A stretch of 64,000 bases of DNA, taken from an uncultured Piscirickettsiaceae bacterium. Lineage in GTDB: Bacteria > Pseudomonadota > Gammaproteobacteria > GCF-002020875. Position 1 is the first letter of the stretch. Every line of letters begins with the position of its first letter. This document shows positions 26,787 to 63,437 of this stretch, piece after piece. The DNA lies in assembly GCA_964344135.1 (NCBI GenBank), contig CAYFMF010000003.1, positions 442 through 64,441 of the forward strand. The letters are read 5' to 3'. The notes beneath the pieces were generated by a model. The model saw only the letters and a program-made list of their open reading frames with translations, had not been told where the DNA came from and did no database searches. Made by a program: the position numbers and the translations under genes.

Positions 26787-28070
26787 TTGGATATTAACAA
26801 CTTTGAAGCCTATTGTGATCAGTTTGATCGCGCTGTCAACGAGCTGGGGATCGAAGAGAATCTGGCCGAACTGCTGAAACACCCTGACCGTGAACTCCTC
26901 GTGGAACTCCCGCTGGTTCGGGATGATGGCTCCCTGATGGTCCTCCACGGCTATCGGGTTCAACACAACAATGCCCGTGGCCCCTTCAAGGGGGGGCTGC
27001 GTTTTCATGAGTGTGTCGATCTGGACGAGGTGCGTGCCCTCTCAGCACTGATGACCTTCAAGACCGCCCTGGTCGATATCCCCTATGGTGGTGGCAAGGG
27101 GGGGATCCAGGTGGACCCCAAGAAGCTCTCCTCACATGAACTGGAGCAGCTGACTCGAACCTTTGTCCGCGCCATCAGTCCGGTGATCGGGGTCCATACC
27201 GACATCCCGGCACCCGATGTAAACACCAATGCCCAGATCATGGCCTGGTTCATGGATGAATACAGTCAGCTTCACGGCTACAGCCCCGGAATTGTCACCG
27301 GAAAGCCGCTCAATCTCGGAGGCTCGAAGGGAAGAAATGCCGCTACCGGATATGGAGTCTCCATCGTGCTGCGTGAGGTTGCCGAGTACCGCAACATGGA
27401 GCTGAAGGGTGCAACAGTTGTAATCCAGGGATTTGGCAATGTGGGGAGCTGGGCTGCCAAATACCTTGATGAATTTGGCTGCAAGATCATTGCAGTCAGT
27501 GACAGCAAGGGGGCCATTATCGATAACAGTGGGCTCGATATTACGGCACTGATTGAATACAAGCAGACACATGGGACCATCCAGGGTTTTGGAAACAGTC
27601 ACTCCATCGATGCCGAAACACTTCTCTATACACCCTGCGACTTTCTGGTCCCGGCGGCACTGGGTGGCGTGATCCACAAAAAGAACGCCAATAATCTGCG
27701 CTGCAAGATCGTGATCGAGGCAGCCAACGGCCCCACCACCCCAACCGCTGACACGATTTTATGGAGCAAGAACATTCCTGTGGTTCCCGACATCCTGACC
27801 AATGCGGGTGGTGTGATCGCCTCCTACTACGAATGGGTCCAGAACCTGCAGCGCCACTACTGGGAGGAGGAAGAGGTCAACAGCAAGATGGAGAAGAAAC
27901 TGACCAGCGCCTTCTGTGAGGTTGCCGCACTCGCCCACTCCAAAAGGGAGCTCTCCTATCGTACTGCCGCCTTTATGCTGGCAATTAAACGGGTAACCGA
28001 TACCACAACGATTCGTGGACGACTCGGCTCTCCCTGCGCCATCACCCCTGATCTGCCCCAAGACACTTAA
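26787..28070 (+). CDS. gdhA: Glu/Leu/Phe/Val dehydrogenase family, most likely glutamate dehydrogenase
   Basis: 427 aa. KGGLRFH...PYGGGKGG catalytic motif and C-terminal Rossmann domain GFGNVGSWAA. Confidence 0.8.
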   Translation: MDINNFEAYCDQFDRAVNELGIEENLAELLKHPDRELLVELPLVRDDGSLMVLHGYRVQHNNARGPFKGGLRFHECVDLDEVRALSALMTFKTALVDIPYGGGKGGIQVDPKKLSSHELEQLTRTFVRAISPVIGVHTDIPAPDVNTNAQIMAWFMDEYSQLHGYSPGIVTGKPLNLGGSKGRNAATGYGVSIVLREVAEYRNMELKGATVVIQGFGNVGSWAAKYLDEFGCKIIAVSDSKGAIIDNSGLDITALIEYKQTHGTIQGFGNSHSIDAETLLYTPCDFLVPAALGGVIHKKNANNLRCKIVIEAANGPTTPTADTILWSKNIPVVPDILTNAGGVIASYYEWVQNLQRHYWEEEEVNSKMEKKLTSAFCEVAALAHSKRELSYRTAAFMLAIKRVTDTTTIRGRLGSPCAITPDLPQDT

Positions 28071-28476
28071 TCCCGGACACCTCCCAGAAATCTGGCCCAT
28101 AATCGATAAAGATCTCCTCTCCGGGACGGATCCTCTTCAGTGCCTCGATCCGTGCCTTTTTCCAACGTGTTGAGACCACAAACTGTGCATTGGGTTTTGC
28201 CGAATGGTTTACATAGCGGGTGTAATTCTCCCCCACAATCAGACAGTCCCGACAGACCCAGAGCAGATAGTGTGAATCAATATAGGGGCTGCGTTCCGAC
28301 TGGGCATCGGTGATGATCTTCCCCAGATAGGGGCCGATGGTATCCCCTCTCTGGAGCGTCACAAGCGAAAAGAGCCCCTCTCCACACCCACTGATTGTGG
28401 ATGGAGCCACCTCAAAGTGGTGCTCCTCAAACTGTCTCGATTGTCCCATTCTCCACCCGATCTCCTCTCGCCCCAA
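28042..28476 (-). CDS. SET-domain protein (putative protein-lysine N-methyltransferase)
   Basis: 144 aa. GCGEGLFS, RYVNHSAKPNAQF and GEEIFIDYG match SET-domain motifs (GxG, NHS/RxxNH, ELxxDY). Convergent 29-bp overlap with the gdh 3' end. Confidence 0.65.
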   Translation of the reverse strand: MGREEIGWRMGQSRQFEEHHFEVAPSTISGCGEGLFSLVTLQRGDTIGPYLGKIITDAQSERSPYIDSHYLLWVCRDCLIVGENYTRYVNHSAKPNAQFVVSTRWKKARIEALKRIRPGEEIFIDYGPDFWEVSGIKCLGADQG

Positions 28477-28589
28477 ACAGCCGACAAGACACTATTCAAG
28501 CGCTCAATTGAATTGTATTTCAGCCAATTTCATGTTAATATAGCAGAAATTGATGCACCATATTTAAACTCCAAACCCAAGAGGTTTTC

Positions 28590-29339
28590 ATGAAAAAACT
28601 GAATCTTGTAATGCGTACAGCTGCTGGCGCCCTGATAGCCAGCAGCATGGCGATGCCGGTCGCTGCAGAAGAGGCTGCCACTGGGCAGGTTGCTGAACAA
28701 CAGGCAGCGGCTGCCACACAGCAGGCTGAGCCACGCAAGCGCCGTCCACAGAGCCGCCCCCCCATGCCCTATGGCCCTGGGATGACACCCCCTTATGGCA
28801 TGATGCCTCCGGGCATGGCTCCCTATGGCCCTGGCCCCTACGGGATGGCACCTCCACAGGGTTTTGGCCCCTATGGCCCTCCCGGCATGAGCCCCTACGG
28901 CCCACCAATGGGCTATGCGCCCCCCGGCTACGGGCCTGGCGGCTACAATGCCCCCGGTTTCAACCCCTCATTCAACCCACCCACCATGGAGCCACCCTGG
29001 GGGAATGACAAGAACTTTGACATGAGCCCGATGAAATTCTGGCCGGTTCCCGGAACAGGAAACCCCTGGCACTACAAGCCATGGGAGCCCGGTGCCCCCT
29101 GGGGTGATTCCGACAAGTTCTCCGATCCACCCGATGAGGCCTTCCACGAGGCGGAGGATTTCCTCGCCGACGCCCCAAGAATGCCTGGTGGCTGGGAGCT
29201 GCCCAACATCTCCATGCCAAGCCCCTTCGAGATCGGAGAGCAGGTTGGAGACCAGAGCTGGCTGCTGCCGGAAAACTTCAAGATGCGTGACCGCAATCGT
29301 CCCAAGCGCTACCGGAAGTACTTCCAGAACGAGCAGTAA
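28590..29339 (+). CDS. Secreted low-complexity Pro/Gly/Tyr/Met-rich repeat protein
   Basis: 249 aa. Signal peptide MKKLNLVMRTAAGALIASSMAMPVAA, then reiterated PYGPG/PPGM units (PYGPGMTPPYGMMPPGMAPYGPGPYGMAPP...). Good RBS, genome-typical GC3. Confidence 0.55.
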   Translation: MKKLNLVMRTAAGALIASSMAMPVAAEEAATGQVAEQQAAAATQQAEPRKRRPQSRPPMPYGPGMTPPYGMMPPGMAPYGPGPYGMAPPQGFGPYGPPGMSPYGPPMGYAPPGYGPGGYNAPGFNPSFNPPTMEPPWGNDKNFDMSPMKFWPVPGTGNPWHYKPWEPGAPWGDSDKFSDPPDEAFHEAEDFLADAPRMPGGWELPNISMPSPFEIGEQVGDQSWLLPENFKMRDRNRPKRYRKYFQNEQ

Positions 29340-29575: not shown

Positions 29576-29763
29576 TTCAGATCAGGTGTTCCGGTGGGCC
29601 CGCATTGACGGTGCATCCGGATGATTTATGTCAAATACATTTATGCAAACCGGCAGGAAGATCACTATTCGAGGACAAACACTCTTGTTGAGAAGGCAGT
29701 GGTTAGATGCTACGGTTAACAACAAGATACAGCACGGCACCCCATTGGGAGGGGGGAACAACA

Positions 29764-30354
29764 ATGAACATACTAATCGCTGACGATCACTACCTCTATC
29801 TGCAGGGGCTGCGCCTGCTACTCAATGGGCAGCACAAGAAGCTGCGCTACCATGAGGCCAGGGATCTCGCCTCTGTGCTGGATCAGCTGGGCCACCACCC
29901 CATTGAGCTGCTGCTGCTCGATCTGCGGATGCCCGACATGGAGGGGTTTGACGGGGTCTACCAGATCCGTGAGCGCTACCCTGAGCTGCCGATTGTGATC
30001 ATTACCAGCTCAGAGAGCCGCACCGATGTCCAGGCTGCAATCAATGCCGGGGTTCAGGGGTATATCCTCAAGTCACTGGATCACAAGGCGATGACCGATG
30101 CGCTCAATGAGGTGGTTGCCGGCAACCCGTTCTTCCCCGACCTCAGTCAGCCACTCTCTGGCCCACTGGAGAATCTGACCAATCGGCAGCTGGAGATCCT
30201 GCACCTGATCAATGACGGGATGGGGAATCGTGAGATTGGCAAGCGGCTGGGGATTACCGAAGGGACCGTGGGGCAGCATGTTCACGCCCTGCTCAGCGCA
30301 CTGAAGGTAAAAAACCGTTCCGAGGCGGCGCGCATCCTTCGTGAGTATGAGTAG
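29764..30354 (+). CDS. NarL/LuxR-family response regulator (REC domain plus LuxR helix-turn-helix)
   Basis: MNILIADDHYLYLQGL...LLLDLRMPDMEGF receiver domain. C-terminal NRQLEILHLINDGMGNREIGKRLGITEGTV LuxR helix-turn-helix motif. Confidence 0.85.
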   Translation: MNILIADDHYLYLQGLRLLLNGQHKKLRYHEARDLASVLDQLGHHPIELLLLDLRMPDMEGFDGVYQIRERYPELPIVIITSSESRTDVQAAINAGVQGYILKSLDHKAMTDALNEVVAGNPFFPDLSQPLSGPLENLTNRQLEILHLINDGMGNREIGKRLGITEGTVGQHVHALLSALKVKNRSEAARILREYE

Positions 30355-30982
30355 CACCCACCCGCACCACGCACTGGGGCAGTTTCTCTCCACAGCAATT
30401 CACGACATCAAGCAGCCGCTCAATGTGCTACAGATGTATCTGGGGATCCTGCAGGAGCAGGCCGGCCTCCCAAAGGGGGACGAATTGACCCAGATCGCAA
30501 ATGGCTCCCTGAAATCACTACAGTCAATGCTCAACCTGCTCAGCAACTGGGCGCGTGCTGATGAAGGGGGACTCAGGATCCAGCCAGAGTGGGTAACGCC
30601 ATCAACATGGTCTCAACATCTCGAGAAGCAGGAGTGGCTCTCCCACCCCCTCCCGGCAGTGGATCTCTCTGCTGAGGAGACTCATCGGTCGATCGATCTT
30701 GCCCTGCTCACCCAGACCCTGCGCGACATCCTGACCCTGCTCCCCAGGGGGACAGCCATCACCGCAACCCCCACCCCATGGAGCCTTGAACTCCAGCTCA
30801 CCCCGCCACTACAGCGTGGCAGTGATGGTGAGCTTCTGTTTAGCGATGCCCTGCATCAACTGGCAGTGGATGGCGGAGGCGCCGTCCTGAAGGCGCTCGG
30901 CTTTCAGCAGCGGCTGGTAGAGCGTGATGGGGCGGTTGTGATTGCCATTCAGGGGGCGGAGAGTATGGTTGCTGCGCCATGA
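30341..30982 (+). CDS. HisKA (DHp) domain protein lacking recognisable ATPase boxes
   Basis: 213 aa. H-box AIHDIKQPLNVLQMYLGIL, but no N/G1/G2 motifs. Overlaps the regulator gene by 14 bp and the downstream kinase gene by 4 bp. Confidence 0.5.
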   Translation: MSMSSTHPHHALGQFLSTAIHDIKQPLNVLQMYLGILQEQAGLPKGDELTQIANGSLKSLQSMLNLLSNWARADEGGLRIQPEWVTPSTWSQHLEKQEWLSHPLPAVDLSAEETHRSIDLALLTQTLRDILTLLPRGTAITATPTPWSLELQLTPPLQRGSDGELLFSDALHQLAVDGGGAVLKALGFQQRLVERDGAVVIAIQGAESMVAAP

Positions 30983-33261
30983 TCGAGCTGACCAGAGCGT
31001 GGTTGTTCCGAGTTGCCACCCTGTTACTGCTCGCCTTTGGAGCCGGGGCCACCCATGCCGAGGAGGAGCTGGTTCCGGTCAGGCTGCAGCTGAACTGGTT
31101 CCACCAGTTTGAGTTTGCCGGCTTCTATGCGGCGCTGGAGCAGGGCTACTACCGTGATGCGGGGCTGGATGTAACGATCATCCCCGCCACCTTCACGACA
31201 GTTGCCGCCGATGAGCTGACCAGTGGAAATGCCGACTATGCGGTGGGCTACGCGGGCACCATGCTGAAGAAGGCCGCCGGGCAGCCCATTGTCGCCCTCA
31301 AGTCCATCCTTCAGTACTCCCCCTACGCCCTGATGGTACGTGCCGACTCCGCAATCCAGCAACCCGCGGATCTGCGACACAAGCGAATCATGATGCCCCC
31401 CAACCCCAACGCCTCGGAACTGTTTGCGATGCTGCAGGAACATGGTATTAAGCCAAACCAGATTCTGCGCATGGACCACAGCCACAAGCTTGAGGATCTC
31501 ATCTCAGGCAAGGCGGATGCCATCAGCATCTACACCACCAACGAGCCCTTCCGCCTCAGAGAGATGGGGTTTGAGCCACGCATCTTTGACCCCCGGGACA
31601 GCGGAGTGGACTTTTATGGTGACATTCTGATCACAACCGAACAGAAGATCCAGGAGCGCCCAGAGGAGGTACAGCGCTTTGCCGAGGCGACCATGATGGG
31701 ATGGGAGTATGCATCCACCCACCCCACAGAGCTGATCCAGACCATTGTTGAGCACTACAACGGAAAAGAACAGGGAGGGCTGGAAAAAAGTTTTGATGCA
31801 CTCCAGTTTGAGGCGACCGAGATTATCAAAAGGGTCTCTCCCATTCTGATCGATATCGGCCATATGAGTCGCAAACGGTGGCAGAGGTCGCTGTTGACCT
31901 ATCTGGATCAGGGGATGGTGAATCAGCGGTACCGGGACCCCGCTGAACAGGAGCGGTTACTGGATGAGTTTCTCTACACCCCCCCGATCGCAATCACCCT
32001 GCCCCATCTGCTCACCCACTATCGCACCGAGGCCACCATTGTATCCGTGATACTTGTCATCATCAGCGGGCTCATCCTCCTCTACCTTATTCAGTTGAGG
32101 AGGACGGTGGAGGCAACCCTCAACAAGGAGGAGTTCATGGCGAGAATGAGCCATGAGATTCGAACCCCGATGAATGGCATCATGGGGGTGCTGGAGTTGC
32201 TGCGGCTGACCCCGCTCAACCGGGAACAGCAGGATCACCTCAATACCATGCAGAGCTCGGGGACAAGGCTGTTGACCATCATCAACGGGATTCTCGACCT
32301 CTCCAAGATTGAGGCGGGAAAGATCAACCTTGAATCAACCCCATTTGACCTCTTCCGGGTTCTGCAGGAGATTGACGACCTGATCTCCCCACTGGCTCAC
32401 AACAAGGGGGTCAGACTCACACTGGCCAATGACCCCCAACTGCCACAGTGGGTGAAGGGAGACCCGACCCGCCTGCAGCAGATTCTGCTCAATCTGACCG
32501 GCAACGGAATCAAGTTTACCTCCCATGGTGGAGTGACTCTACACACTACACTGGTTGAGAGCAGTCAGGGGCAGGCCCTCATTGAGTTCACTGTCGAGGA
32601 TAGCGGAATCGGCATCAGCGATGAGGCGCAACACCATATCTTTGAGCAGTTCACCCAGGCCAGCGCTGAGACGACCCGTCACCACGGTGGGACTGGACTG
32701 GGGCTGACCATCTCCCAGCAGCTGGTTCAGAAGATGGGCAGCACCATCGTGCTCTCCAGTACTCCGGGAGAGGGAAGCCGCTTCAGCTTCAGGCTCGATC
32801 TGGAGATCGCCACCCCACCGCAGGGGCCGGAGGAGAGTCGGTCCGCAAGAACTGCCCTGGATCCAGCACTGCTCCCCTGCGCTGTACTGCTGGTTGAGGA
32901 CAATGAGACCAACCGGATTGTGGCCCAGAAACTGCTGGAACACATTGGCTGCGAGGTGGAGAATGCAGAGAATGGGGAGGTTGCCCTCAACCGGGTCGTC
33001 GGGCGCAACACCCCCTACGATCTGATCCTGATGGATCTGAACATGCCACTGATGGATGGGGTGGAGGCAGCCCGCCGTATCCGGGGGGGCGGAATCGAAA
33101 CCCCCATTGTTGCACTGACCGCAGAGATCCAGTCCGATGGCAGGCGCTGCCATGAGGCGGGGATTGATGACCTGCTCTACAAGCCATTCTCCATGAGTGA
33201 TCTCGTTGAGAAGATCAACCAGTGGGTCGGAGCTGAGAGCAAGCCCTCACAGAAACAATAA
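30979..33261 (+). CDS. Hybrid sensor histidine kinase/response regulator with a periplasmic SBP-like (NMT1/SsuA-TauA-type) sensor domain
   Basis: 760 aa. Signal/TM, SBP-like domain (LQLNWFHQFEFAGFY...), TM, H-box SHEIRTPMNGI, N-box LNLTGNGIKFT, G1 DSGIGI, G2 GGTGLGLTIS, C-terminal REC domain (LLVEDNETN...DLILMDLNMP). Confidence 0.85.
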   Translation: MIELTRAWLFRVATLLLLAFGAGATHAEEELVPVRLQLNWFHQFEFAGFYAALEQGYYRDAGLDVTIIPATFTTVAADELTSGNADYAVGYAGTMLKKAAGQPIVALKSILQYSPYALMVRADSAIQQPADLRHKRIMMPPNPNASELFAMLQEHGIKPNQILRMDHSHKLEDLISGKADAISIYTTNEPFRLREMGFEPRIFDPRDSGVDFYGDILITTEQKIQERPEEVQRFAEATMMGWEYASTHPTELIQTIVEHYNGKEQGGLEKSFDALQFEATEIIKRVSPILIDIGHMSRKRWQRSLLTYLDQGMVNQRYRDPAEQERLLDEFLYTPPIAITLPHLLTHYRTEATIVSVILVIISGLILLYLIQLRRTVEATLNKEEFMARMSHEIRTPMNGIMGVLELLRLTPLNREQQDHLNTMQSSGTRLLTIINGILDLSKIEAGKINLESTPFDLFRVLQEIDDLISPLAHNKGVRLTLANDPQLPQWVKGDPTRLQQILLNLTGNGIKFTSHGGVTLHTTLVESSQGQALIEFTVEDSGIGISDEAQHHIFEQFTQASAETTRHHGGTGLGLTISQQLVQKMGSTIVLSSTPGEGSRFSFRLDLEIATPPQGPEESRSARTALDPALLPCAVLLVEDNETNRIVAQKLLEHIGCEVENAENGEVALNRVVGRNTPYDLILMDLNMPLMDGVEAARRIRGGGIETPIVALTAEIQSDGRRCHEAGIDDLLYKPFSMSDLVEKINQWVGAESKPSQKQ

Positions 33262-33297
33262 ACCCCTCGAGAGAGGGGCCTATCAGGTATGGCGCGG

Positions 33298-33849
33298 TTA
33301 TCTCCAGTAGGGAGGCGGTGCCATCATTGGCGGCATGGCCGGTGCAAATGGCGGCTGTCCACCACCCATCCCCATAGGGGCAGGTCCATAGGGGTAGGGA
33401 GCCGGACCATAACCATAAGGGGCCGGTGGAGCTCCATAGTATTGTGGAGCATAGTAGTTATCCCCGTAGTAGCGGTTCTCTCCACGACTGCGGCCACGTC
33501 CCTTGTACTTCTTCTCTCCGCTTCCCCTGCCCTCGCCATGAGCCTCGCCCTTGAGCTTGGTGTCGAGATTGAGATCCCACTCCACATCGGTATTGAGGTC
33601 GCTCATTGCATCTCCCATCCCCATGCTGTCCATCATCGAATCGACGGCACCCCAGCCGTGCTCCCCACCAAACGGGCCACGCTTATCATTACTACCCCAG
33701 CCAAAGGGGGCCATGGGGTGGTCAGAACGGTCTCCCCAGTCACTCCAGCCATCCTGCATATCCCAATCTTTCGGGTTCCAGAAGGCCGAGGCACCGCTTG
33801 AGAGCGCCATTGCTGTTGCAGCCACAACGATTTTTACCATGTATTTCAT
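33298..33849 (-). CDS. Secreted low-complexity Gly/Pro/Tyr/Met/Trp-rich protein
   Basis: 183 aa. Signal peptide MKYMVKIVVAATAMALSSGASA; WGDRSDHPMAPFGWG, MMDSMGMGDAM, YYGDNYYAPQYYGAPPAPYGYGPAPYPYGPAPMGMGGG. Compositional paralogue of the 28590..29339 protein. Confidence 0.5.
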   Translation of the reverse strand: MKYMVKIVVAATAMALSSGASAFWNPKDWDMQDGWSDWGDRSDHPMAPFGWGSNDKRGPFGGEHGWGAVDSMMDSMGMGDAMSDLNTDVEWDLNLDTKLKGEAHGEGRGSGEKKYKGRGRSRGENRYYGDNYYAPQYYGAPPAPYGYGPAPYPYGPAPMGMGGGQPPFAPAMPPMMAPPPYWR

Positions 33850-33940
33850 AATTCAGACTCAAACCAGGGTTGGATTAATCAACCGTTTCAGTAAATGCTT
33901 TAATTGTACCCTCTTTTACCCCTTTAATCAAGCAATAATG

Positions 33941-34008
33941 GGGGTCAGGTCTTTCATTTTGCATTGGTGGCAAGGTGGCCCACCAATGTAAAATGAAAGA
34001 CCTGACCC
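33941..34008 (+). repeat. Near-perfect 30-bp inverted repeat (long hairpin) with an 8-nt loop
   Basis: ggggtcaggtctttcattttgcattggtgg-caaggtgg-ccaccaatgtaaaatgaaagacctgacccc. The single mismatch is a G-U wobble only on the + strand transcript. Confidence 0.7.
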
Positions 34009-34020
34009 CCCCCATAACAG

Positions 34021-53940: not shown

Positions 53941-54612
53941 ATGCTCGTAAAAATTACTGTTCTGTCACTGGCAGCTCTTCTTTCACCCATTGCCGGCGCC
54001 TGGGATGGTCTGGACCGTGGAGGCGAGATTGAGGAGTCAATGACACTCACTCCCGACATTGAGAACGGAAAAAAACTCTATAAAACCTGTGCCTTCTGTC
54101 ACACACCGGATGGGTGGGGCATGGAGCCCGGAATCGGTAAATACCGGGTTCCGGGAACCTATCCACAACTGGCGGGCCAACACCAGTCGGTACTGATCAA
54201 GCAGCTCTACGATATCCGTCAGCTCAATCGGGACAACCCCACCATGTACCCCTTTACACTGGCCCGCTATATTGGAGGTGCCCAGGATGTTGCCGATGTA
54301 ACCGCCTACATCACCACCCTCTCCATCAACCACTTCAATCAGCATGGGGATGGATCTGATCTGGCGCTTGGAAAAGAGCTCTACGAGGAGAACTGCGTCA
54401 AGTGTCACGGGGAGAATGGTGAGGGAGATACTGAAAACTTCTACCCGCGCCTCTCCAACCAGCACTACCCCTATATGCTGAGACAGTTTGTCTGGATCAA
54501 GGATGGAAAGCGCAGAAACGCCAACAGCAAGATGGTCAAACAGATCCAGAGATTTACCTATCGCGACATGAAGGCGGTCATTGACTATGCCTCCAGACTG
54601 GATGCCCAGTAA
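53941..54612 (+). CDS. Periplasmic diheme cytochrome c (c4-like)
   Basis: 223 aa. Signal peptide, two CxxCH motifs (CAFCH, CVKCH) in two cytochrome-c domains with Met ligand regions. Confidence 0.75.
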   Translation: MLVKITVLSLAALLSPIAGAWDGLDRGGEIEESMTLTPDIENGKKLYKTCAFCHTPDGWGMEPGIGKYRVPGTYPQLAGQHQSVLIKQLYDIRQLNRDNPTMYPFTLARYIGGAQDVADVTAYITTLSINHFNQHGDGSDLALGKELYEENCVKCHGENGEGDTENFYPRLSNQHYPYMLRQFVWIKDGKRRNANSKMVKQIQRFTYRDMKAVIDYASRLDAQ

Positions 54613-54673
54613 CCTGCCTGTAGAAGAATAAAACACAACAACAGTCATAGAGCCTCTAGAGGGAGAGACCTAG

Positions 54674-55378
54674 ATGAAAAAACTACTGATTCCAGCCCTG
54701 ATCTTTATTGCCGGCATGGTGGCACTTGGGGGCGTCAATGTCTTCTTTGCCGCTACCAACGAGATGGAGTTCTGTACCTCCTGCCACTCGATGAAGATCA
54801 ACCTCGAGGAGTATCGCCACACCGTCCACTACGAGAATCAGTCCGGTGTTCAGGCCACCTGCTCGGACTGTCATGTACCCAAACAGTTCATCCCCAAGGT
54901 AATGGCCAAGATCATGGCGGCCAAGGATGTATACCACTGGGTCATGGGCACCATTGAGCCTGATGAGTCCCAACTGGTTTCAGCGGACAGCAGTGGCAAC
55001 TGTCCCGACCTCTTTATCCCTGTTGAGGAGGGCTCCAACCTCTGCGTCCCCAATTATGGGGATCCCTATAGCGAGGATGAGATGAGCGAGGAGGCTGAGG
55101 CGCGTCGTGAGGCGGCACTGGAGAAATACAATGCCTACCGCTGGAAGATGGCCAACAGTGTCTGGGACAAGATGAAGGCCACGGATTCACGTGAATGCAG
55201 AAACTGTCACTCCTTCGACAACATGAACCTCGACGAGCAGGACCGCAGTGCACGCAAGAAGCATGGTCGTGCCACCGACAAGGGTCAGACCTGTATCGAC
55301 TGCCACAAGGGGATAGCCCATGCCGAGCCGGATGAACCTGATGATGAAGAGGAAGAGGAAGAGGATGAAGAGGCATAG
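54674..55378 (+). CDS. NapC/NirT-family membrane-anchored tetraheme cytochrome c (quinol dehydrogenase type) with an acidic C-terminal tail
   Basis: 234 aa. N-terminal TM. Four CxxCH motifs (CTSCH, CSDCH, CRNCH, CIDCH). Tail DEPDDEEEEEEDEEA. Confidence 0.8.
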   Translation: MKKLLIPALIFIAGMVALGGVNVFFAATNEMEFCTSCHSMKINLEEYRHTVHYENQSGVQATCSDCHVPKQFIPKVMAKIMAAKDVYHWVMGTIEPDESQLVSADSSGNCPDLFIPVEEGSNLCVPNYGDPYSEDEMSEEAEARREAALEKYNAYRWKMANSVWDKMKATDSRECRNCHSFDNMNLDEQDRSARKKHGRATDKGQTCIDCHKGIAHAEPDEPDDEEEEEEDEEA

Positions 55379-55408
55379 CCCAGCCCACTGGATGCCGGCC
55401 TATCGGAA

Positions 55409-56365
55409 ATGAATCGGAGCAGTATCATGAAAACAATAACCACCATCGTACTATCCCTCCTCTTCTCCAGTGCCTGCCTCGCTGATGCCGCACTGGACCA
55501 GTCACTGCGCAGGGCTGTGATCAATGGGGAGCTTGCTGAGGTTAAACAGCTGATCAGCCAGGGTGCTGATATCAACAGTAGTGGAGAGTTTGGCCACACC
55601 CCACTGATCTATGCGGCCGAGGATGGTCAGATTGAGATTGCCCAGCTGCTGATTGAACATGGTGCCCGTATCGACCGGCAGACCAGGGGAGGATACACCG
55701 CCCTCTCCGCCGCTGCCGATGAAAGCAGCATTGCCCTGGTCTCCCTGCTCCTGAAGGCTGGAGCCGACCCACATATCAAGACCCGTAATGGAATGGATGC
55801 GCTGATGATTGCGGTCCGCAGCGGAGATGCAGATGTGATCTCGATGCTGATGGCCTATAACAGCAACATCAACACCGCAAACCGCCATGGACAGACCCCG
55901 TTGATGATCGCCTCCCAGAGCGGCAATATCGATGTGGTCCATATGATGTTGCTGGCTGATGCCGGCATGAACATCCGTGACAAGAATGGCAGAACCGCCC
56001 TGATGATCGCCGCAGACACCCAGAGCCTGGAGGTGGTAACCGCCCTGCTGAATCGTGGGGCCTTAACCTCGGTGACGGATGATCATGGTGCCACCGCCCT
56101 GCACTATGCAATCAAGCGCAAGGGAAGCGCCATTGCAGAGACCCTTCTCAACCGTGGCGCCAATGTCAATGTGGCAGATAACGACAGCTGGACCCCGTTA
56201 ATGGATGCGGTCAGCCGTGGAAACAGCAAACTGGCAAAACTGCTGATACAGCGAGGTGCCGATGTAGAGGTCCATGATCAGGAAGGCCACAGCCTCCCCC
56301 AGATCGCCGAGATGAACCGCCGCCACCAGCTGGCTGAATATCTTCAGGGGCTTATCAAGCGCTAG
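55409..56365 (+). CDS. Periplasmic ankyrin-repeat protein
   Basis: 318 aa. Signal peptide (start may be the MKTITTIVLSLLFSSACLA methionine at about 55427). About 8 tandem 33-residue ANK repeats (GxTPLxxAA...GADxN). Confidence 0.8.
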   Translation: MNRSSIMKTITTIVLSLLFSSACLADAALDQSLRRAVINGELAEVKQLISQGADINSSGEFGHTPLIYAAEDGQIEIAQLLIEHGARIDRQTRGGYTALSAAADESSIALVSLLLKAGADPHIKTRNGMDALMIAVRSGDADVISMLMAYNSNINTANRHGQTPLMIASQSGNIDVVHMMLLADAGMNIRDKNGRTALMIAADTQSLEVVTALLNRGALTSVTDDHGATALHYAIKRKGSAIAETLLNRGANVNVADNDSWTPLMDAVSRGNSKLAKLLIQRGADVEVHDQEGHSLPQIAEMNRRHQLAEYLQGLIKR

Positions 56366-56600
56366 CCGGTTACGGTAGCACCAACACCAAACCAATGCCG
56401 GATAACCTACAGAGCACTCCACCATGGAGAGAGCTCCTGTAGCTTAACGGCACAGAACCCACTGACGGGATTGGTGGCTCCGAAGCATGCGGGTTACTCG
56501 ATCACGAGCACCGTTCTCCAACAATATTGAGTACTTGATCTAGAGACCTAACTCGAATAAGGTACTGTTTCTGGTTATTCATGTTCAGGGGGAGAGGTAT

Positions 56601-57218
56601 ATGAGAAAGGTACTGCTTGGCACAATATTAACAACCATTCTGGCATCGCCGGTAACCATGGTTACAGCCGCAGAGGAGGCCGCTGCGGAGAAGGCTGCTG
56701 TAGCAGAGGATATCTCTGTCCACGTTCAAGAGAGTCGTGCTCTGGCCAAGAAGCTGTTTGTCAAACTGAAACATGCGCTGGTTACGGGGATGAAGGCGGG
56801 AGGCCCCTCTACGGCAATCACCGCCTGTAACGTACAGGCGCAGCCCATTACCCGTGCAGCATCCAACCGCCGTACCGGGCTCAATATTCGTCGCACCAGT
56901 CTGCGCCTGCGCAATCCAAAGAATGCCCCCGATGCCTGGGAGATTCGGGTTCTGGAACAGTTTGAGGGGCGCTTTGCCGCAGGTGAGGATCCCAGCAAGG
57001 TGGAGTACCACGAGGTGGTGGAACAGAAAGGTGGCGAACGACTCTTCCGTTACATGAAAGCGATCCCGGCCAGCAAGCCCTGCATGGTCTGTCATGGCGA
57101 GCTGATTGCACCGGATGTACTGAAGACCATTCGGGATCTCTATCCCTATGAGCAGGCAACCGGCTTCAAGCCGGGAGATCTTCGTGGTGCCTTCTCGGTC
57201 ACCAGAGAGCTCGATTGA
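56601..57218 (+). CDS. DUF3365/Tll0287-like periplasmic heme-c protein
   Basis: 205 aa. Signal peptide, PAS-like body, single C-terminal CxxCH (CMVCHG), as in Tll0287-family proteins. Confidence 0.55.
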   Translation: MRKVLLGTILTTILASPVTMVTAAEEAAAEKAAVAEDISVHVQESRALAKKLFVKLKHALVTGMKAGGPSTAITACNVQAQPITRAASNRRTGLNIRRTSLRLRNPKNAPDAWEIRVLEQFEGRFAAGEDPSKVEYHEVVEQKGGERLFRYMKAIPASKPCMVCHGELIAPDVLKTIRDLYPYEQATGFKPGDLRGAFSVTRELD

Positions 57219-57285
57219 TGTTGTAGTCCATTCAACAATAAGTTAAGAGCACCATGCCTGTGGAGGCGGGAATGGTGCGCTGTCG

Positions 57286-59283
57286 ATGTCAGCAGCGGAA
57301 GGGAGGAGTGCTGTGAACCGATTTGTACAGATCACAAGACTATGGGTGCTGATGCTTCTGCTTGGAGTATACGGCACAACCCTCTATGCGGCATCCGACA
57401 ACTCGAAGACGGGTGCAAAGAAAATCGTGCCCAACAAGGTCTGTATTAAATGCCACTCCGATGAGGAAAACAAATTTGAGACCCTCTATGAGGATGAGGA
57501 TGATGAGGAAGGGACCGAGGTCTACATCTACGTCGATGAGGAGAAGTTTGAGGAGAGTGTTCACGGCAAACAGAACTGTGTAGGGTGTCACACCAACATC
57601 ACCAAGAAGTACCACCAGGAACAGCCGGTGATCAGCGTGAGCTGTATCCAGTGCCACAAGGAGGAGTGGGAGAAGCAGCAGGGGGAGGAGCATCCCAGGT
57701 ATGATCGCCTCGATGTGGTGATGCAGCAGATCGACGGCTATATGGATTCGGTCCATGCCCGCCCCAGCATCGCAGACCAGTCCAGGACCAACGCCACCTG
57801 CCATGACTGTCACGACCCACATAACATCGGCACCCTCGGCAGTGAGGCCCGTGCCGACCATCGACTGAAGAACCCAGAAGTCTGCGGACGCTGTCACGAA
57901 GAGCAGAAAGAGGCCTACCTCACCTCCGCACATGGCAGGGAGGTGGTGGAGAATGGCAATAGTGAGGCCGCGGTCTGTTCCGACTGTCACACTACCCACA
58001 ACATCGACTCCCCGGACCGGGATCCCATCAAGCTGACGATTACCCAAAACTGTGGGGATTGCCATGAGGATGCCTACAAGACCTACCGCTCCTCCTACCA
58101 TGGGCAGGTAAACCGCCTGGGGTACACCAATACCGCAAAGTGTTATGACTGCCACGGCAGCCATGAACTCAAGAAGGTAGAGGACCCAACCTCAAGCGTC
58201 CATCTGGAGAACCGCCTGGAGACCTGCCAACAGTGTCATGAGGATGCGCCAGAGGGGTTTTTGAGCTTCCACGCCCATGCCAATGTCGATGACTATGAGC
58301 GTTATCCGGAGATCTATCTCACTGCAAAGTTCATGAACTACCTGATCATTGCGGTCTTTGCCTTCTTCTGGACCCATGTCCTGCTCTGGTTCCATCGTGA
58401 GTACAAGGATCGCAAGCAGGGCAAGGGGTATCAGCCTCCACCTGCAGCGCTGTTGGCAGCCAAGGAGCGGATCTATTTCCGTCGCTTCAGTGCAACCTGG
58501 CGGGTCATTCACCTGCTGTTTGCGGTCAGCACCATGACACTGGTGCTCACCGGGTCATCCCTGCTCTTCTCGCATACCGCCTGGGCTCCGGTCGTGATTG
58601 GTCTGCTGGGTGGGCCGGAGATCGAGGCCATTATTCACCGTACCGCAGCGACTACCTGGCTGTCGGTCTTCCTGGTCCACTTTGGAATTGCCAGCTACAA
58701 CATCATCAAGAACCGCAAGAGCTTCCGCTGGTTCGGCCCCACCTCCATGTTGCCCAACTGGCAGGATCTGCGTGATGTGGTTGCCATGTTCCGCTGGTTC
58801 TTCGGAAGAGCTGAACGTCCCGACTTTGACCGCTGGTCCTACTGGCAAAAGTTTGATTACTGGGCACCATTCTGGGGTGCAGGAGTGATTGGGCTGAGCG
58901 GAATGATGCTCTTCTCGCCAACCCTGGCTGCTACCGTCCTCCCTGGATACGTCTTCAACATTGCAACCATCATCCATGCGGAAGAGGCACTGCTGGCAAC
59001 CATGTTCCTGTTTACGGTCCACTTCTTCAATGCCCACTTCCGCCCGGACAAGTTCCCGATGAGCACAACCATCTTTACCGGGGCGATCCCGCTGGATGAG
59101 TTCAAGCATGAGCACCGTCTGGAGTATGAGCGCCTGAAAGAGAGTGGAGAGCTCTCCAGGTACCTGATCAAGAAGCCATCAAAGGCGATGCAGACCGGCT
59201 CCAACCTGCTCGGTGCCATCCTGATCTTCTCCGGATTGACGCTGTTGACCCTGGTGATGATCGGTTATATCAGCACGATGTAA
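57286..59283 (+). CDS. CbcL-like fusion: periplasmic nonaheme cytochrome c domain joined to a diheme cytochrome b (HydC/FdnI-type) membrane domain
   Basis: 665 aa. Nine CxxCH motifs (CIKCH, CVGCH, CIQCH, CHDCH, CGRCH, CSDCH, CGDCH, CYDCH, CQQCH), then about 5-6 TM helices with conserved His pairs (VIHLLF, IIHRTA, FLVHFG, TIIHAEE...TVHFFNAHF). Confidence 0.75.
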   Translation: MSAAEGRSAVNRFVQITRLWVLMLLLGVYGTTLYAASDNSKTGAKKIVPNKVCIKCHSDEENKFETLYEDEDDEEGTEVYIYVDEEKFEESVHGKQNCVGCHTNITKKYHQEQPVISVSCIQCHKEEWEKQQGEEHPRYDRLDVVMQQIDGYMDSVHARPSIADQSRTNATCHDCHDPHNIGTLGSEARADHRLKNPEVCGRCHEEQKEAYLTSAHGREVVENGNSEAAVCSDCHTTHNIDSPDRDPIKLTITQNCGDCHEDAYKTYRSSYHGQVNRLGYTNTAKCYDCHGSHELKKVEDPTSSVHLENRLETCQQCHEDAPEGFLSFHAHANVDDYERYPEIYLTAKFMNYLIIAVFAFFWTHVLLWFHREYKDRKQGKGYQPPPAALLAAKERIYFRRFSATWRVIHLLFAVSTMTLVLTGSSLLFSHTAWAPVVIGLLGGPEIEAIIHRTAATTWLSVFLVHFGIASYNIIKNRKSFRWFGPTSMLPNWQDLRDVVAMFRWFFGRAERPDFDRWSYWQKFDYWAPFWGAGVIGLSGMMLFSPTLAATVLPGYVFNIATIIHAEEALLATMFLFTVHFFNAHFRPDKFPMSTTIFTGAIPLDEFKHEHRLEYERLKESGELSRYLIKKPSKAMQTGSNLLGAILIFSGLTLLTLVMIGYISTM

Positions 59284-59510: not shown

Positions 59511-60107
59511 ATGAAAGCAACGAAACTTGCAGTAGCCGTTCTCGGCAGCTGTGCAATCAGTTTCTCTGCGTTCGCAGGAAACATGACAGGGGCTGACGGA
59601 TCCATGCTCGCCAACACCTGTGCTGGTTGTCACGGCACAGACGGAGCCAGCGTTGGTCCAGCCATCCCATCCATTGGTGGAATGTCTGCAACCTACATCA
59701 CCGACATGATGGCAGCATACAAGTCTGGTGATACCAACAGCACCATCATGGGCCGTATCGCAAAGGGCTACAGTGAGGATGAGGTTGGTGCGATCGCCAA
59801 CTTCTTCGCCGATCAGCCACAGTCCCGTGCAGACCAGTCCTTTGACAGTGCCAAGGTCGCCAAGGGGCAGAAGCTGCATGACAAGTACTGTGAGAAGTGT
59901 CACTCTGAGGGTGGCGCACTGGCAGATGACGATTCCGGCATTCTCGCTGGGCAGCTGATGCCTTATCTTGAGTACAGTATGGAGGATTTCCACAATGGTG
60001 ATCGCTCTATGCCGAAGAAGATGAAGAAGAAGGTCAAGAAGCTGAACAAGAAGGAAGGCGACGCTGGTGTTGACGCTATCTTCCACTACTACGCAAGCCA
60101 GCGCTAA
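59511..60107 (+). CDS. fccA: Flavocytochrome c sulfide dehydrogenase, diheme cytochrome subunit
   Basis: 198 aa. Signal peptide, two CxxCH motifs (CAGCHG, CEKCHS). Immediately upstream of fccB. Contains a Lys-rich insertion PKKMKKKVKKLNKKEG. Confidence 0.75.
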   Translation: MKATKLAVAVLGSCAISFSAFAGNMTGADGSMLANTCAGCHGTDGASVGPAIPSIGGMSATYITDMMAAYKSGDTNSTIMGRIAKGYSEDEVGAIANFFADQPQSRADQSFDSAKVAKGQKLHDKYCEKCHSEGGALADDDSGILAGQLMPYLEYSMEDFHNGDRSMPKKMKKKVKKLNKKEGDAGVDAIFHYYASQR

Positions 60108-60122
60108 GGAGGAGCTATAACA

Positions 60123-61451
60123 ATGAGTAAATTTAATCGTAGAGACTTTCTGAAGGTTTCTGGTAGTGCCGTAGGTGCCGCATCCGTTGCCGGTATGGGG
60201 CTGTATGCAGGTAACTCCTTCGCTGGCTCCAAGGGCCGCGTCGTTGTTGTTGGTGGTGGTATGGGCGGTGCAACAGCTGCCAAATACATCAAGCGCGCTG
60301 ATGCTGCCATTGATGTCACCATCATCGAGCCTAACAAGACCTACTACACTGGTTTCACCAGTAATCTGACACTCTCAGGCATGGTCACCATGGATCAGCT
60401 GGCTCACACCTATGAGGGTCTGGCTGCAATGGGAATCAACATTGTTCACGACGCTGTGACCGAGATCGGTGACAATGCGGTGAAGACTGCAGGTGGCGGC
60501 AGCTACGGCTTTGACCGCTGTGTGGTCTCTCCTGGTGTGGACTTCAAGTTTGTTGAGGGACACAGTGAGGAGGTTGCCAACAACTCCGTAACCCACGCCT
60601 ACAAGTCTGGCCACCAGATGAATCTGCTGGGGCAGCAGCTCAAGGCGATGAAGGATGGCGGTACAGTTGTAATTGCTGCACCACGCAACCCATTCCGTTG
60701 CCCTCCCGGACCTTATGAGCGTACCAGCCAGATCGCTGCCTACCTCAAGGCCAACAAGCCAAAATCAAAGATCATTGTTCTTGATCCAAAGGACAAGTTC
60801 TCCAAGTTTGGTCTGTTCCGCGAGGCGTGGTCTGTGCACTACGGCTTCGATGGTGCCCAGGATGGTGGTGAAAACTCCATGATCACCTGGGTCAAGGGTG
60901 CAGCCGGTGGTGCACTGGAGGCCGTTGAGGCTGACAGCAACACTGCAGTTGCAGCTGTTGAGGAGTTCAAGGCGGACGTACTGAATGTTATCCCCGACAT
61001 GAAGGCGGGTAATGTTGCCTCTGCCAATGGGCTGACTGATGGTGACTGGTGTCCAGTAGACCTGCAGACTTTCGAATCCAAGAAGCGTGCAAACATCTAC
61101 GTAATTGGTGACTCCAGTGCTGCCAAGGGTCTGCCGAAGTCTGGCTATGCGGCCAGCTCAGAGGCAAAGGTCTGTGCAGCAGCGGTTGTAGCGGCACTGA
61201 ACGGCAACTCTGCCCCAATCCCCGCCTACACCAACACCTGCTACAGTGTGGTTGCACCGAACGATGCGTTCTCTGTTGCAGCGGTCTACCAGCTGGCAGC
61301 AGACAAGTCGAAGGTCATGAAGGTCTCCGGCGGTCTGACTCCAAGCGGTGACAAGCGCAACGCTGCGTTCCGTGAGCGTGAGGTTGCCTATGCACTGAGC
61401 TGGTATGACAACATCACCTCTGATGCCTTCAACAACGCCAAGAAGTTGTAA
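60123..61451 (+). CDS. fccB: Flavocytochrome c sulfide dehydrogenase, flavoprotein subunit
   Basis: 442 aa. Tat signal SKFNRRDFLK, FAD-binding VVVVGGGMGGATAAKY. Confidence 0.85.
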   Translation: MSKFNRRDFLKVSGSAVGAASVAGMGLYAGNSFAGSKGRVVVVGGGMGGATAAKYIKRADAAIDVTIIEPNKTYYTGFTSNLTLSGMVTMDQLAHTYEGLAAMGINIVHDAVTEIGDNAVKTAGGGSYGFDRCVVSPGVDFKFVEGHSEEVANNSVTHAYKSGHQMNLLGQQLKAMKDGGTVVIAAPRNPFRCPPGPYERTSQIAAYLKANKPKSKIIVLDPKDKFSKFGLFREAWSVHYGFDGAQDGGENSMITWVKGAAGGALEAVEADSNTAVAAVEEFKADVLNVIPDMKAGNVASANGLTDGDWCPVDLQTFESKKRANIYVIGDSSAAKGLPKSGYAASSEAKVCAAAVVAALNGNSAPIPAYTNTCYSVVAPNDAFSVAAVYQLAADKSKVMKVSGGLTPSGDKRNAAFREREVAYALSWYDNITSDAFNNAKKL

Positions 61452-61495
61452 AGCAGTAGAGGCGTTGTCTTAACAAGCAACGCTGGAAAAAGAGA

Positions 61496-61525
61496 CCCTC
61501 AGAAGGCAACTTCTGAGGGTTTTTT
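61496..61525 (+). terminator. Rho-independent terminator after fccB
   Basis: ccctcagaag-gcaa-cttctgaggg followed by TTTTTT. Confidence 0.8.
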
Positions 61526-61556
61526 CATGAACATGGAAACAGAGTGTACGCTCTAT

Positions 61557-61826
61557 CTACAGCGCTTTCTGGACTACACTTGCCCTGACCATCCGCGGAA
61601 ACAGCCTTAGAACATCATCAACGGAGATCAGACCGTTATACATTGTAATCTCCCTTCTCTTCACCAGCTCCTGGATAATGACCCGCCGGACCTTCAGAAT
61701 CTCACACAGAAGGCAGGATGACATGAACCTTTTATTGCACCCATCGCAACTGAGCTCAATGGAGCAACCATTAATCAACTGATCCAGCTCTCTCTCAGAC
61801 ATACAATTCAAACCCCCTCTCTTCAT
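61557..61826 (-). CDS. Hypothetical small Cys-rich protein
   Basis: 89 aa (or about 81 aa from MSERELDQ). Cys pattern CSIELSCDGCNKRFMSSCLLC. Between fccB and soxA. Function unknown. Confidence 0.35.
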   Translation of the reverse strand: MKRGGLNCMSERELDQLINGCSIELSCDGCNKRFMSSCLLCEILKVRRVIIQELVKRREITMYNGLISVDDVLRLFPRMVRASVVQKAL

Positions 61827-61870
61827 CTAGAACTCCTGTCCCAATCATCACTCCAGTAGCAGCGGACGTA

Positions 61871-61917
61871 AATACGTATAACTACGTATTGATGCAAATG
61901 ATTCTCGTTACTATAAT
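61871..61917 (+). promoter_or_regulatory. Consensus-like sigma70 promoter (TTGATG-17-TATAAT) with an abutting 8-4-8 inverted repeat operator candidate
   Basis: aatacgta-taac-tacgtatt overlaps the -35 ttgatg (61889-94). 17-nt spacer. Perfect -10 tataat (61912-17). Confidence 0.5.
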
Positions 61918-61923
61918 GAAGCC

Positions 61924-62006
61924 ACATTTAGAGAGTAGTCGTTGAGTTTCCTCCCATAGATTGACGACTGTTGTTGCCGGCATATCAATGATATGCCGGC
62001 TTTTTT
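61924..62006 (+). ncRNA. Candidate small RNA, about 80 nt, between the promoter above and an intrinsic terminator
   Basis: The transcript would contain stem agtcgt/acgact enclosing a UUCCUCCC loop, then terminator gccggcatatcaatgatatgccggc plus TTTTTT (61976-62006). There is no + strand ORF for it to serve. Confidence 0.35.
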
Positions 62007-62013
62007 AACGGAC

Positions 62014-62045
62014 AAAAAAACCCGGCCATTGCTGACCGGGCTATC
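62014..62045 (-). terminator. Intrinsic terminator for soxA (minus strand)
   Basis: Minus-strand reading agcccgg-tcagcaatgg-ccgggtt followed by TTTTT. Confidence 0.5.
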
Positions 62046-62096
62046 GTCTTAATGGATTGTCGTCACAGGGTGAATCTGTGACAAGCTCCCAGAAGG

Positions 62097-62957: not shown

Positions 62958-63065
62958 AACGTTCTCCTTTGGTTGTCATCATTTCCCCTCCCACCGTTTT
63001 GGTGGGAGGGGTTCCAGGTTTTGGCAATCTTCTCTTTCAATACCTACAGGGTGCAGGCAGTGAAC

Positions 63066-63380
63066 TTATTTTGCTGCCTTGCTTCCTGTTGCACTCTCTC
63101 CCTTGTTGTCGGTCCAGGTGACGCTAATCTTGTCACCCTTCTCTCCCGCGACCTTGAATCGCAGATAGGGGTTCTTCGAGATTGTGGAGTTGAAGTCCGC
63201 AGTCATGAAGACAGCACCGTTCTTCTCCGCAGTTACTGTCTGGATAAAGTGTTCAGGAATCTTCTCACCTGTCTTCTTGTCCTTTCTCAGACCGGTCTCC
63301 ATTGGGTGACTCATCAGACACTTGATGTCAATGACACCCTTTTTTGCCTTGGCTCTCAGCTTTACTGCTTTCTTTGCCAT
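63066..63380 (-). CDS. soxZ: Thiosulfate-oxidation carrier complex protein SoxZ
   Basis: 104 aa. Typical SoxZ size and sequence (IKCLMSHPMETG...FKVAGEKGDKISVTWTDNKG). Confidence 0.8.
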   Translation of the reverse strand: MAKKAVKLRAKAKKGVIDIKCLMSHPMETGLRKDKKTGEKIPEHFIQTVTAEKNGAVFMTADFNSTISKNPYLRFKVAGEKGDKISVTWTDNKGESATGSKAAK

Positions 63381-63437
63381 TTTGTTTTCCTCTAATTTTT
63401 CTGTTTATTCCATAGTGGGATATGCAGGCACTGCCTA

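Follow-up and report, generated by a model that had tools for sequence, protein, structure and literature searches.

Sulfur globule proteins (Sgps) have been described in only a handful of cultured bacteria and cannot be recognized reliably by sequence, so that sulfur storage is hard to predict in the uncultured sulfur oxidizers of the ocean. This problem is raised by a 64,000-nucleotide stretch of DNA from an uncultured Piscirickettsiaceae bacterium (contig CAYFMF010000003.1; the whole stretch is called the window below), which encodes two secreted proteins rich in Gly, Pro, Tyr, Met and Trp: protein 1 on the plus strand and protein 2, the subject of this work, on the minus strand. What might an exported protein of such composition be doing in the envelope of this organism? 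Our tentative answer, based on sequence and analogy and given a little less than an even chance, is that protein 2 is a periplasmic coat protein of the sulfur globule type and acts jointly with protein 1.

Protein 2 is a conserved gene of one marine clade

Protein 2 is a genuine gene under strong purifying selection. The identical protein is encoded by 13 metagenome contigs, and 11 homologues were found at E ≤ 1e-28. In all 13 readable relatives the open reading frame (ORF) is uninterrupted, a 14th locus (L015) being masked by a run of N; here and below, L-numbers denote relative loci and P-numbers database proteins. The loci that have kept the ORF, the signal peptide and the end motif span 42-59% guanine plus cytosine (GC). 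Compared with L007, the closest relative, the ratio of non-synonymous to synonymous substitution rates (dN/dS) is 0.048, and the substitutions are distributed 4/5/49 over the three codon positions of the minus-strand frame. An earlier, sequence-only reading of this DNA had argued for a real, selected low-complexity protein rather than a chance ORF, and this is borne out by the intact ORFs and the low dN/dS; the loss or frame disruption in close relatives that it had named as contrary evidence was seen in none of the 13.

Protein 2 belongs to an orphan family, found only in a single clade of marine gammaproteobacterial metagenome-assembled genomes (MAGs). A profile of its conserved N-terminal module (N-module) matched only four clusters among 1.84 billion representative proteins, one of them an assembly chimera. 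All 12 relatives recovered from a species-level genome collection are uncultured marine MAGs, some of them Saanich Inlet bins, which carry the labels Piscirickettsiaceae, Methylophaga, Thiotrichales or Gammaproteobacteria. Examples of MAGs with the family are CALEHW01, JABHIC01, JABHVM01 and the CAYFO*/CAZ* bins. In protein P0032 (315 residues), the C-terminal half of a protein 2 homologue (identical to P0011) follows an unrelated N-terminal part; P0032 is probably an assembly or gene-calling chimera.

Architecture and predicted disorder of protein 2

The mature protein consists of 17.4% Gly, 13.0% Pro, 7.5% Tyr, 7.5% Met and 5.0% Trp, contains no Cys and has a grand average of hydropathy (GRAVY) of -1.08. 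The signal peptide, WG/FG motifs, Met-rich acidic patch and Tyr/Pro block that had been noticed from the letters alone are all present in protein 2 (Table 1). The signal peptide combines a basic n-region (K2, K6), a hydrophobic core and an A-x-A cleavage site (ASA↓FW), and this A-x-A↓FW junction, in the form ASA, AYA or AAA, is retained in 12 of 12 family members. It is of the Sec type, and protein 2 is predicted to be exported to the periplasm, with a likely cleavage at ASA↓FW.

The N-module that follows contains FWNPKDWD, three GWG motifs, two GPF-type motifs (APF and GPF) and the Met patch, and differs from its counterpart in L007 by 16 synonymous and no non-synonymous changes. Within the patch, the Met-rich stretch previously pointed out, MMDSMGMGDAMSD, was found at residues 72-84; the Met-patch peptide of protein 2, as opposed to the variant of the P0031 type, reads GAVDSMMDSMGMGDAMSD. 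An amphipathic helix is unsupported for the patch (hydrophobic moment 0.16, against 0.14 in shuffles). The alternating acidic/hydrophobic segment at residues 84-99 has a beta hydrophobic moment of 0.84, compared with 0.19 ± 0.14 in shuffled sequences, of which 0.02% reach the observed value (p ~2e-4), and its core (T87-D92) is invariant even with P0031 included. The segment shows the pattern of an amphipathic strand and could lie on a hydrophobic surface or interface.

Downstream of the N-module, the linker is variable in sequence yet basic throughout the family, with dN/dS values of 0.35-0.52 against the more distant relatives. The low-complexity tail, which opens with the Tyr/Pro block YYGDNYYAPQYYGAPPAPYGYGPAPYPYGP (residues 127-156), is under selection as well (dN/dS 0.04 against L007 and 0.19-0.27 against L008, L013 and L017). 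A C-terminal motif, PFAPAMPP...(Y/G/N/M)WR(R), at residues 166-183 (33301-33354), is kept across the core clade and absent from P0031; we know of no sorting signal that it resembles.

AlphaFold2, supplied with the family alignment, gave a mean predicted local distance difference test score (pLDDT) of 46.7 and no usable model. Judged from this modeling on a shallow alignment, protein 2 is predicted to be disordered throughout. Searches of Protein Data Bank (PDB) sequences with the family profiles of proteins 1 and 2 gave no meaningful match, and protein 2 matched no family in NCBIfam.

Resemblance to sulfur globule proteins

The layout of protein 2 can be followed step by step in a known envelope protein of sulfur globules. 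The 15-kDa envelope protein ALG67575.1 of Beggiatoa leptomitoformis has been reported to be lost from a strain in which sulfur globules do not form, and to respond to thiosulfate with a 10-fold induction (PMC7356093); its sequence and those of relatives in B. alba and Thioflexithrix are given in the supplement to that paper, where its signal peptide is followed by WWG..GWGNNEWGPFDDGSGWGDFNMSMGGGGRGYGRQY and then by a Tyr/Pro/Ala/Gly tail. ALG67575.1 and protein 2 have in common a Sec signal peptide, an aromatic start of the mature chain (WW and FW, respectively), a W/G/D-rich region of the form GWG..GPF..GWG, a short Met motif, an Arg/Gly/Tyr stretch (RGYGRQY in ALG67575.1) and a Tyr/Pro/Ala/Gly tail, in both cases with regularly spaced prolines. 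The Met motif of ALG67575.1, GDFNMSMGGGG, stands at the place matching the Met patch of protein 2. Both proteins measure 15-18 kDa, lack Cys and come from sulfur-oxidizing Gammaproteobacteria. Protein 2 differs in having a conserved FWNPKDWDM..DGW and the acidic alternating segment DLNTDVEWDLNLDTKLKG on the flanks of this common core; its basic linker is also longer, its tail contains Met and its end is the conserved PFAPAMPP..YWR.

In Pfam, the sole match of protein 2 is to the SGP family (PF17228; 20.7 bits, E 7.6e-4) and lies in the tail. This match was lost when the tail was shuffled, the order of its residues being essential. All three Beggiatoaceae Sgps match the same family, ALG67575.1 with 27.7 bits, and members of the protein 1 family do not match it. 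When the N-regions alone were aligned with hhalign, 29 columns were covered at 45% identity (E 1.1e-3), with a score that was also reached by 15 of 400 column shuffles.

With a mature mass of ~17.8 kDa, protein 2 falls inside the reported Sgp range of 8.7-18.5 kDa, and it is small, rich in Gly, Pro and aromatic residues and free of any Pfam or NCBIfam domain above cut-off, Sgps having been described as proteins without marked conserved domains (PMC7356093). A further member of the class, SgpD, has been studied with a fluorescent fusion (PMC10386293). Like SgpA, SgpB and SgpC of Allochromatium vinosum, protein 2 is small, Sec-exported and of low complexity and belongs to a sulfur oxidizer. By its sequence signals it behaves as a self-contained monocistronic unit with its own putative promoter and terminator (Table 1), and the promoter layout, TTGAT..-N17-TA.AAT, recurs upstream of most homologues despite their different gene neighborhoods. 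Each of the Allochromatium sgp genes is likewise a separate transcription unit.

The setting of the gene is also that of a sulfur oxidizer. The window contains genes for both parts of flavocytochrome c sulfide dehydrogenase (FCSD), FccA and FccB, and for SoxA, SoxZ and SoxY. Contigs of the same species extend this cluster to the order soxB-218-residue ORF-soxX-soxY-soxZ-soxA-89-residue ORF, convergent with fccB-fccA (L030, 1-8923). Neither of these two ORFs has a Pfam match, and no soxCD genes are present within the sox/fcc cluster of the window or of the same-species contigs. In Allochromatium, sulfane sulfur enters periplasmic globules by way of FCSD and a Sox system that lacks SoxCD. A gene for a lipoprotein that fuses an FKBP prolyl isomerase to a rhodanese lies just upstream of protein 2 in eight distinct relative loci; it does not occur in the window. 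Such a neighbor is suggestive, as it would fit a proline-rich exported protein in a sulfur setting, and is not evidence of function.

We favor the role of a sulfur-coat protein because of the layout, the PF17228 match, the size, the monocistronic organization, the presence of FccAB and SoxBXYZA, the FKBP-rhodanese neighbor, the amphipathic segment and the predicted disorder. A possible mechanism can be outlined as follows. The precursor would be exported and cleaved at ASA↓FW, after which the invariant alternating segment DLNTDVEWDLNLDTKL and the aromatic and Met-rich N-module would rest on the hydrophobic surface of the sulfur. Both the Arg/Gly linker and the Tyr/Pro/Gly/Met tail would self-associate and bind the matching low-complexity region of protein 1, giving a hydrated protein envelope. 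This coat would cover elemental sulfur or polysulfide laid down in the periplasm by FccAB and SoxBXYZA, and the genes of both proteins would be co-regulated through a shared ATTCAA-N8-TTGAAT operator. Within this outline, we infer the site of cleavage, any association with sulfur, the joint assembly with protein 1 and which regulator is involved.

A number of results weigh against a sulfur coat. Protein 2 does not reach the curated PF17228 cut-off of 26.7 bits, which ALG67575.1 passes, and only 2 of the 12 family members touch this family at E ≤ 1. The sub-threshold match comes from the variable tail, and its score was kept in three of four controls in which the N-region had been shuffled or reversed (22.3 bits, compared with 21.5, 8.9, 20.7 and 22.8). 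BLASTP between protein 2 and ALG67575.1 was not significant (E 1.5). A comparison with the Beggiatoaceae Sgps by hhalign reached 96.5% probability when the signal peptides were retained, but without them only the tails aligned, at 53%. When the three Beggiatoaceae Sgps were scored with the hidden Markov model (HMM) of the N-module, a single one exceeded 3000 composition-matched shuffles (p 0.003, 0.23 and 0.08), and an HMM built from these three proteins did not recover protein 2 among the 402 ORFs of the window. A search with the tail region alone (residues 99-183) returned no match in 5.8 billion proteins. The Allochromatium Sgps, which measure 11-13 kDa as precursors, are described as extremely hydrophobic, whereas mature protein 2, at the GRAVY given above, is strongly hydrophilic. 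Finally, sulfur storage by the host lineage is a candidate trait only, read from the FccAB and SoxBXYZA genes.

Taken as a functional class, then, Sgps accommodate protein 2 in each testable feature, while common descent with them is unproven and its score lies outside formal Pfam membership. If the role proposed here is correct, the family, so far seen only in uncultured marine MAGs, would be a marker of sulfur storage in its clade, and the pair would allow the organization of an inorganic periplasmic inclusion by disordered proteins to be studied in a system of two proteins and a defined operator. If it is wrong, what is left is a well-documented orphan pair of exported disordered proteins.

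Pairing with protein 1 and a shared palindrome

The sequence-only reading had described proteins 1 and 2 as compositional paralogues. The shared composition is real: the two rank first and second among window ORFs of at least 60 residues for the summed content of Gly, Pro, Tyr, Met and Trp (47% in protein 2 and 45% in protein 1, against 19.4 ± 4.7% in ORFs of at least 200 residues). Paralogy did not hold up, as hhalign of the two family alignments aligned a single column at 28% probability. As far as their sequences tell, the proteins are not detectable paralogues, and their likeness is compositional and limited to the low-complexity parts. Protein 1 is also predicted to be disordered (AlphaFold2 mean pLDDT 48.6, no usable model). 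Its C-terminal domain (29090-29339) of ~125 residues is almost invariant among homologues that are otherwise 58-94% identical; AlphaFold predicted no structure for it, and no relative was found among families or in the PDB.

In L009, L016 and L027/L028, the genes of proteins 1 and 2 are direct convergent neighbors with no gene between them. In the window they do bracket a two-component module, as had been reported, but this is not an organizing principle of the locus: the window, L007 and L008 alone have the module beside protein 2, and it is seen between the pair in the window only. Because the pair is directly adjacent without the module in L009, L016 and L027/L028, the convergent arrangement of proteins 1 and 2 is ancestral and the module is a lineage-specific insertion. 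The middle gene of the module encodes a 213-residue protein with a HisKA phospho-acceptor domain and no ATPase domain, which may act as a phosphorelay intermediate; its ends overlap the genes of the regulator and of the hybrid kinase.

The two proteins also appear to change composition together. In four core lineages the low-complexity regions of both are rich in Met and Gly. In a distant pair from one sample, P0030 and P0031, both regions contain 0% Met and more Arg and Asp, and share a YRY..PPPP motif. This co-variation between lineages is a qualitative observation on five pairs, one of them an outlier.

A further tie is found in the upstream DNA. The exact palindrome in front of protein 1 is the only match in the window at up to one mismatch, where 0.11 would be expected; with up to three mismatches, the number of additional copies is at chance level (21, against 16.3 expected). 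The exact form ATTCAA-N8-TTGAAT occurs 13 times in 477,569 bases, in every case no more than ~100 nucleotides ahead of the start codon of protein 1 or protein 2 (positions include L011 8674, L013 1601, L014 3327, L015 9936, L016 8274 and 10144, L027 8040 and 9667, and L009 11710). Six distinct lineages have the exact form before protein 2, where it overlaps the -10 hexamer; four distinct lineages have it before protein 1, its right half-site there lying 17 nucleotides ahead of a -10-like hexamer. The leader of protein 2 in the window carries a diverged form of the family palindrome, which is the same in L007 and L009, differs by one base in L008 and has a related variant in L017. This element is conserved although synonymous sites are saturated against L008 and L009.

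The distribution of the palindrome points to a shared operator through which a single DNA-binding protein would probably co-regulate proteins 1 and 2. The LuxR-type regulator of the neighboring module is a candidate for this role by position only. The link to protein 1 has therefore come out stronger than originally proposed, given the conserved convergent pair, the co-varying composition and the 20-bp palindrome shared in relatives. A SqrR/BigR box was considered and rejected: the published SqrR consensus is ATTC-N8-GAAT (PMC9774250), and the palindrome, read as ATTC-N12-GAAT, is four bases off this spacing.

In its most far-reaching form, this partnership would make proteins 1 and 2 two non-homologous disordered subunits of an undescribed periplasmic coat or condensate in pelagic sulfur oxidizers, under a private ATTCAA-N8-TTGAAT operator and co-assembling through low-complexity regions matched within each lineage (Met/Gly-rich in the core clade, Arg/Asp-rich with YRY..PPPP in the distant one). 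We consider this proposal, taken as a whole, distinctly unlikely. Were it true, it would amount to a new family of sulfur-storage envelope proteins and to heterotypic low-complexity co-assembly in the bacterial periplasm.

Alternative functions

The main rival to a sulfur coat, rather unlikely in our judgment, would be a protein of the periplasmic envelope or matrix that has no connection with sulfur, for example a disordered protein with a structural, adhesive or stress-buffering role. Its Tyr/Pro/Gly/Arg composition would drive self-association, and the likeness to Sgps would be convergent low complexity. This would agree with the marginal homology statistics, with the predicted disorder of both proteins and with the lack of known Sgps related to the N-module or to the C-terminal domain of protein 1. 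The neighbors, too, are housekeeping or carbon-storage genes (PPDK, glycogen genes, gdh, GST), and no sulfur gene shares an operon with protein 2. What such a role leaves unexplained is the restriction of the family to a sulfur-oxidizing clade, the step-by-step match in layout with the Beggiatoa Sgp and the circumstance that SGP is the sole Pfam family touched; nor does it name a concrete function.

A second alternative, which we regard as very unlikely, takes protein 2 for a Met-rich periplasmic binder of Cu(I)/Ag(I), either a metal sponge or a chaperone, comparable to PcoE/SilE or to the Met-rich inserts of CopA/CueO. Mets-type motifs bind Cu(I), and protein 2 resembles these periplasmic binders in having MxxM and MxM among acidic residues. 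In DSMMDSMGMGDAMSD, MxxM, MxM and Mx3M spacings are flanked by Asp, M72 and M76 do not vary within the core clade, and the tail adds more Met. The distant homologue P0031 argues against metal binding: its patch reads DSAFDSVGIGDAMSE, with M72, M73, M76 and M78 (four of the five Met) replaced by A, F, V and I, so that hydrophobicity is kept and the ligands are lost, and 0% Met is found in its tail as in its likely partner P0030. The Met patch is without His or Cys, and the Beggiatoa Sgp has NMSM at the equivalent position. Protein 2 matched no metal-binding family in Pfam or NCBIfam, and no cop/cus/pco/sil-type gene was seen in the neighborhoods annotated or compared, which sets it apart from the PcoE/SilE type with its metal-resistance gene context. 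The methionines of the patch act like hydrophobic residues rather than conserved ligands, although they may still bind metal in the core clade. The copper and silver binding suggested in the sequence-only reading is weakened by the Met loss in P0031 and by the lack of such genes and of a family match.

That the ORF arose by chance, the real feature being the overlapping plus-strand ORF of 170 residues (33289-33801) or no gene at all, has a negligible probability: GC-rich low-complexity DNA tends to keep several frames open, this antisense ORF is present and the third-position GC content of protein 2 (0.60) is below that of its neighbors (0.65-0.77), but the idea is refuted by the 4/5/49 changes and the dN/dS against L007, because of which the 170-residue ORF is not the coding frame, and it is opposed by the ORF, signal peptide and end motif kept in 13 relatives across the GC range given above and by promoter and terminator sites correctly placed around protein 2.

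As an analogy only, the phase-separating Tyr/Arg/Gly-rich domains of the FUS type likewise combine Tyr-rich and Arg/Gly-rich segments in one disordered chain, whereas protein 2 is bacterial, predicted to be periplasmic and not homologous to FUS.

Gene neighborhood and minor features

The positions of all features are collected in Table 1.

Table 1. Features of protein 2 and of its surroundings (window coordinates unless a relative locus is named)
Feature	Position	Strand	Basis or remark
Protein 2 coding sequence	33298-33849	-	precursor of 183 residues, mature protein of 161 residues, ~17.8 kDa, isoelectric point (pI) 4.9
Signal peptide, Sec-type, residues 1-22, MKYMVKIVVAATAMALSSGASA	33784-33849	-	read from sequence; cleavage site inferred
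W/G/D-rich N-module, residues 23-101	33547-33783	-	83% mean column identity, 12 homologues
Met-rich acidic patch DSMMDSMGMGDAMSD, residues 70-84	33598-33642	-	M72, M76 invariant in core clade
Alternating acidic/hydrophobic segment DLNTDVEWDLNLDTKL, residues 84-99	33553-33600	-	candidate amphipathic beta-strand
Basic Gly/Arg/Lys-rich linker, residues 102-126, pI 10.4	33472-33546	-	composition
Tyr/Pro/Gly/Met-rich low-complexity tail, residues 127-183	33301-33471	-	ends in PFAPAMPP...YWR
Leader element ATTAAAGCATTTACTGAAA	33886-33904	-	diverged family palindrome, spacer one base shorter
Promoter-like site TTGATT-17 nt-TACAAT	33903-33931	-	sequence
Terminator-like hairpin	33256-33285	-	between convergent stop codons of protein 2 and hybrid histidine kinase
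Exact palindrome ATTCAAGCGCTCAATTGAAT	28494-28513	+	76 nt upstream of protein 1 start codon
Protein 1	28590-29339	+	signal peptide, variable P/Y/G/M-rich region, near-invariant C-terminal domain of ~125 residues
Two-component module	29707-33261	+	Pfam; regulator, HisKA-only protein, hybrid kinase
LuxR-type response regulator	29707-30354	+	Pfam
HisKA-only protein	30341-30982	+	Pfam
NMT1/THI5-domain hybrid histidine kinase	30979-33261	+	Pfam
Sulfur-oxidation genes: FccA, FccB (+), then SoxA, SoxZ, SoxY (-)	59511-63881	mixed	Pfam
FccA (flavocytochrome c sulfide dehydrogenase)	59511-60107	+	Pfam
FccB (flavocytochrome c sulfide dehydrogenase)	60123-61451	+	Pfam
SoxA, SoxZ, SoxY	62097-63881	-	Pfam
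FKBP-rhodanese lipoprotein gene	L019 9045-9800; L027 6659-7378; equivalents in L010-L015		relative loci

Elsewhere, protein 2 is flanked upstream either by GST-hyp234 or by PurT-FKBP/rhodanese lipoprotein, the latter in some cases followed by a Tll0287-like gene, and downstream either by protein 1-SET-gdh or by PPDK-hyp318-glgA. On the protein 1 side of the window, a SET-domain gene (28042-28476) overlaps the 3' end of the glutamate dehydrogenase gene (26787-28070), which lies on the opposite strand, by 29 bases, and the order gdh-SET-protein 1 is retained in several relatives. Directly upstream of fccAB, the region 53941-59283 encodes a dihaem cytochrome c, a NapC/NirT tetrahaem protein, a 318-residue ankyrin-repeat protein, a Tll0287-like protein and a 665-residue fusion of multihaem and cytochrome b561 parts. 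A Tll0287-like gene also adjoins protein 2 in several relatives.

The 5' leader of protein 2 folds no better than shuffled sequences (z -1.2). Around the gene, Rfam gave only sub-threshold matches of the microRNA type, which are caused by a hairpin at 33939-34011. This hairpin is near-perfect, with arms of 31 bp, lies between the stop codon of the hyp234 lipoprotein gene and the protein 2 promoter, and is unique in the window. Three short contigs of the same species (L003, L005 and L006) start inside it, indicating that assemblies tend to break there.

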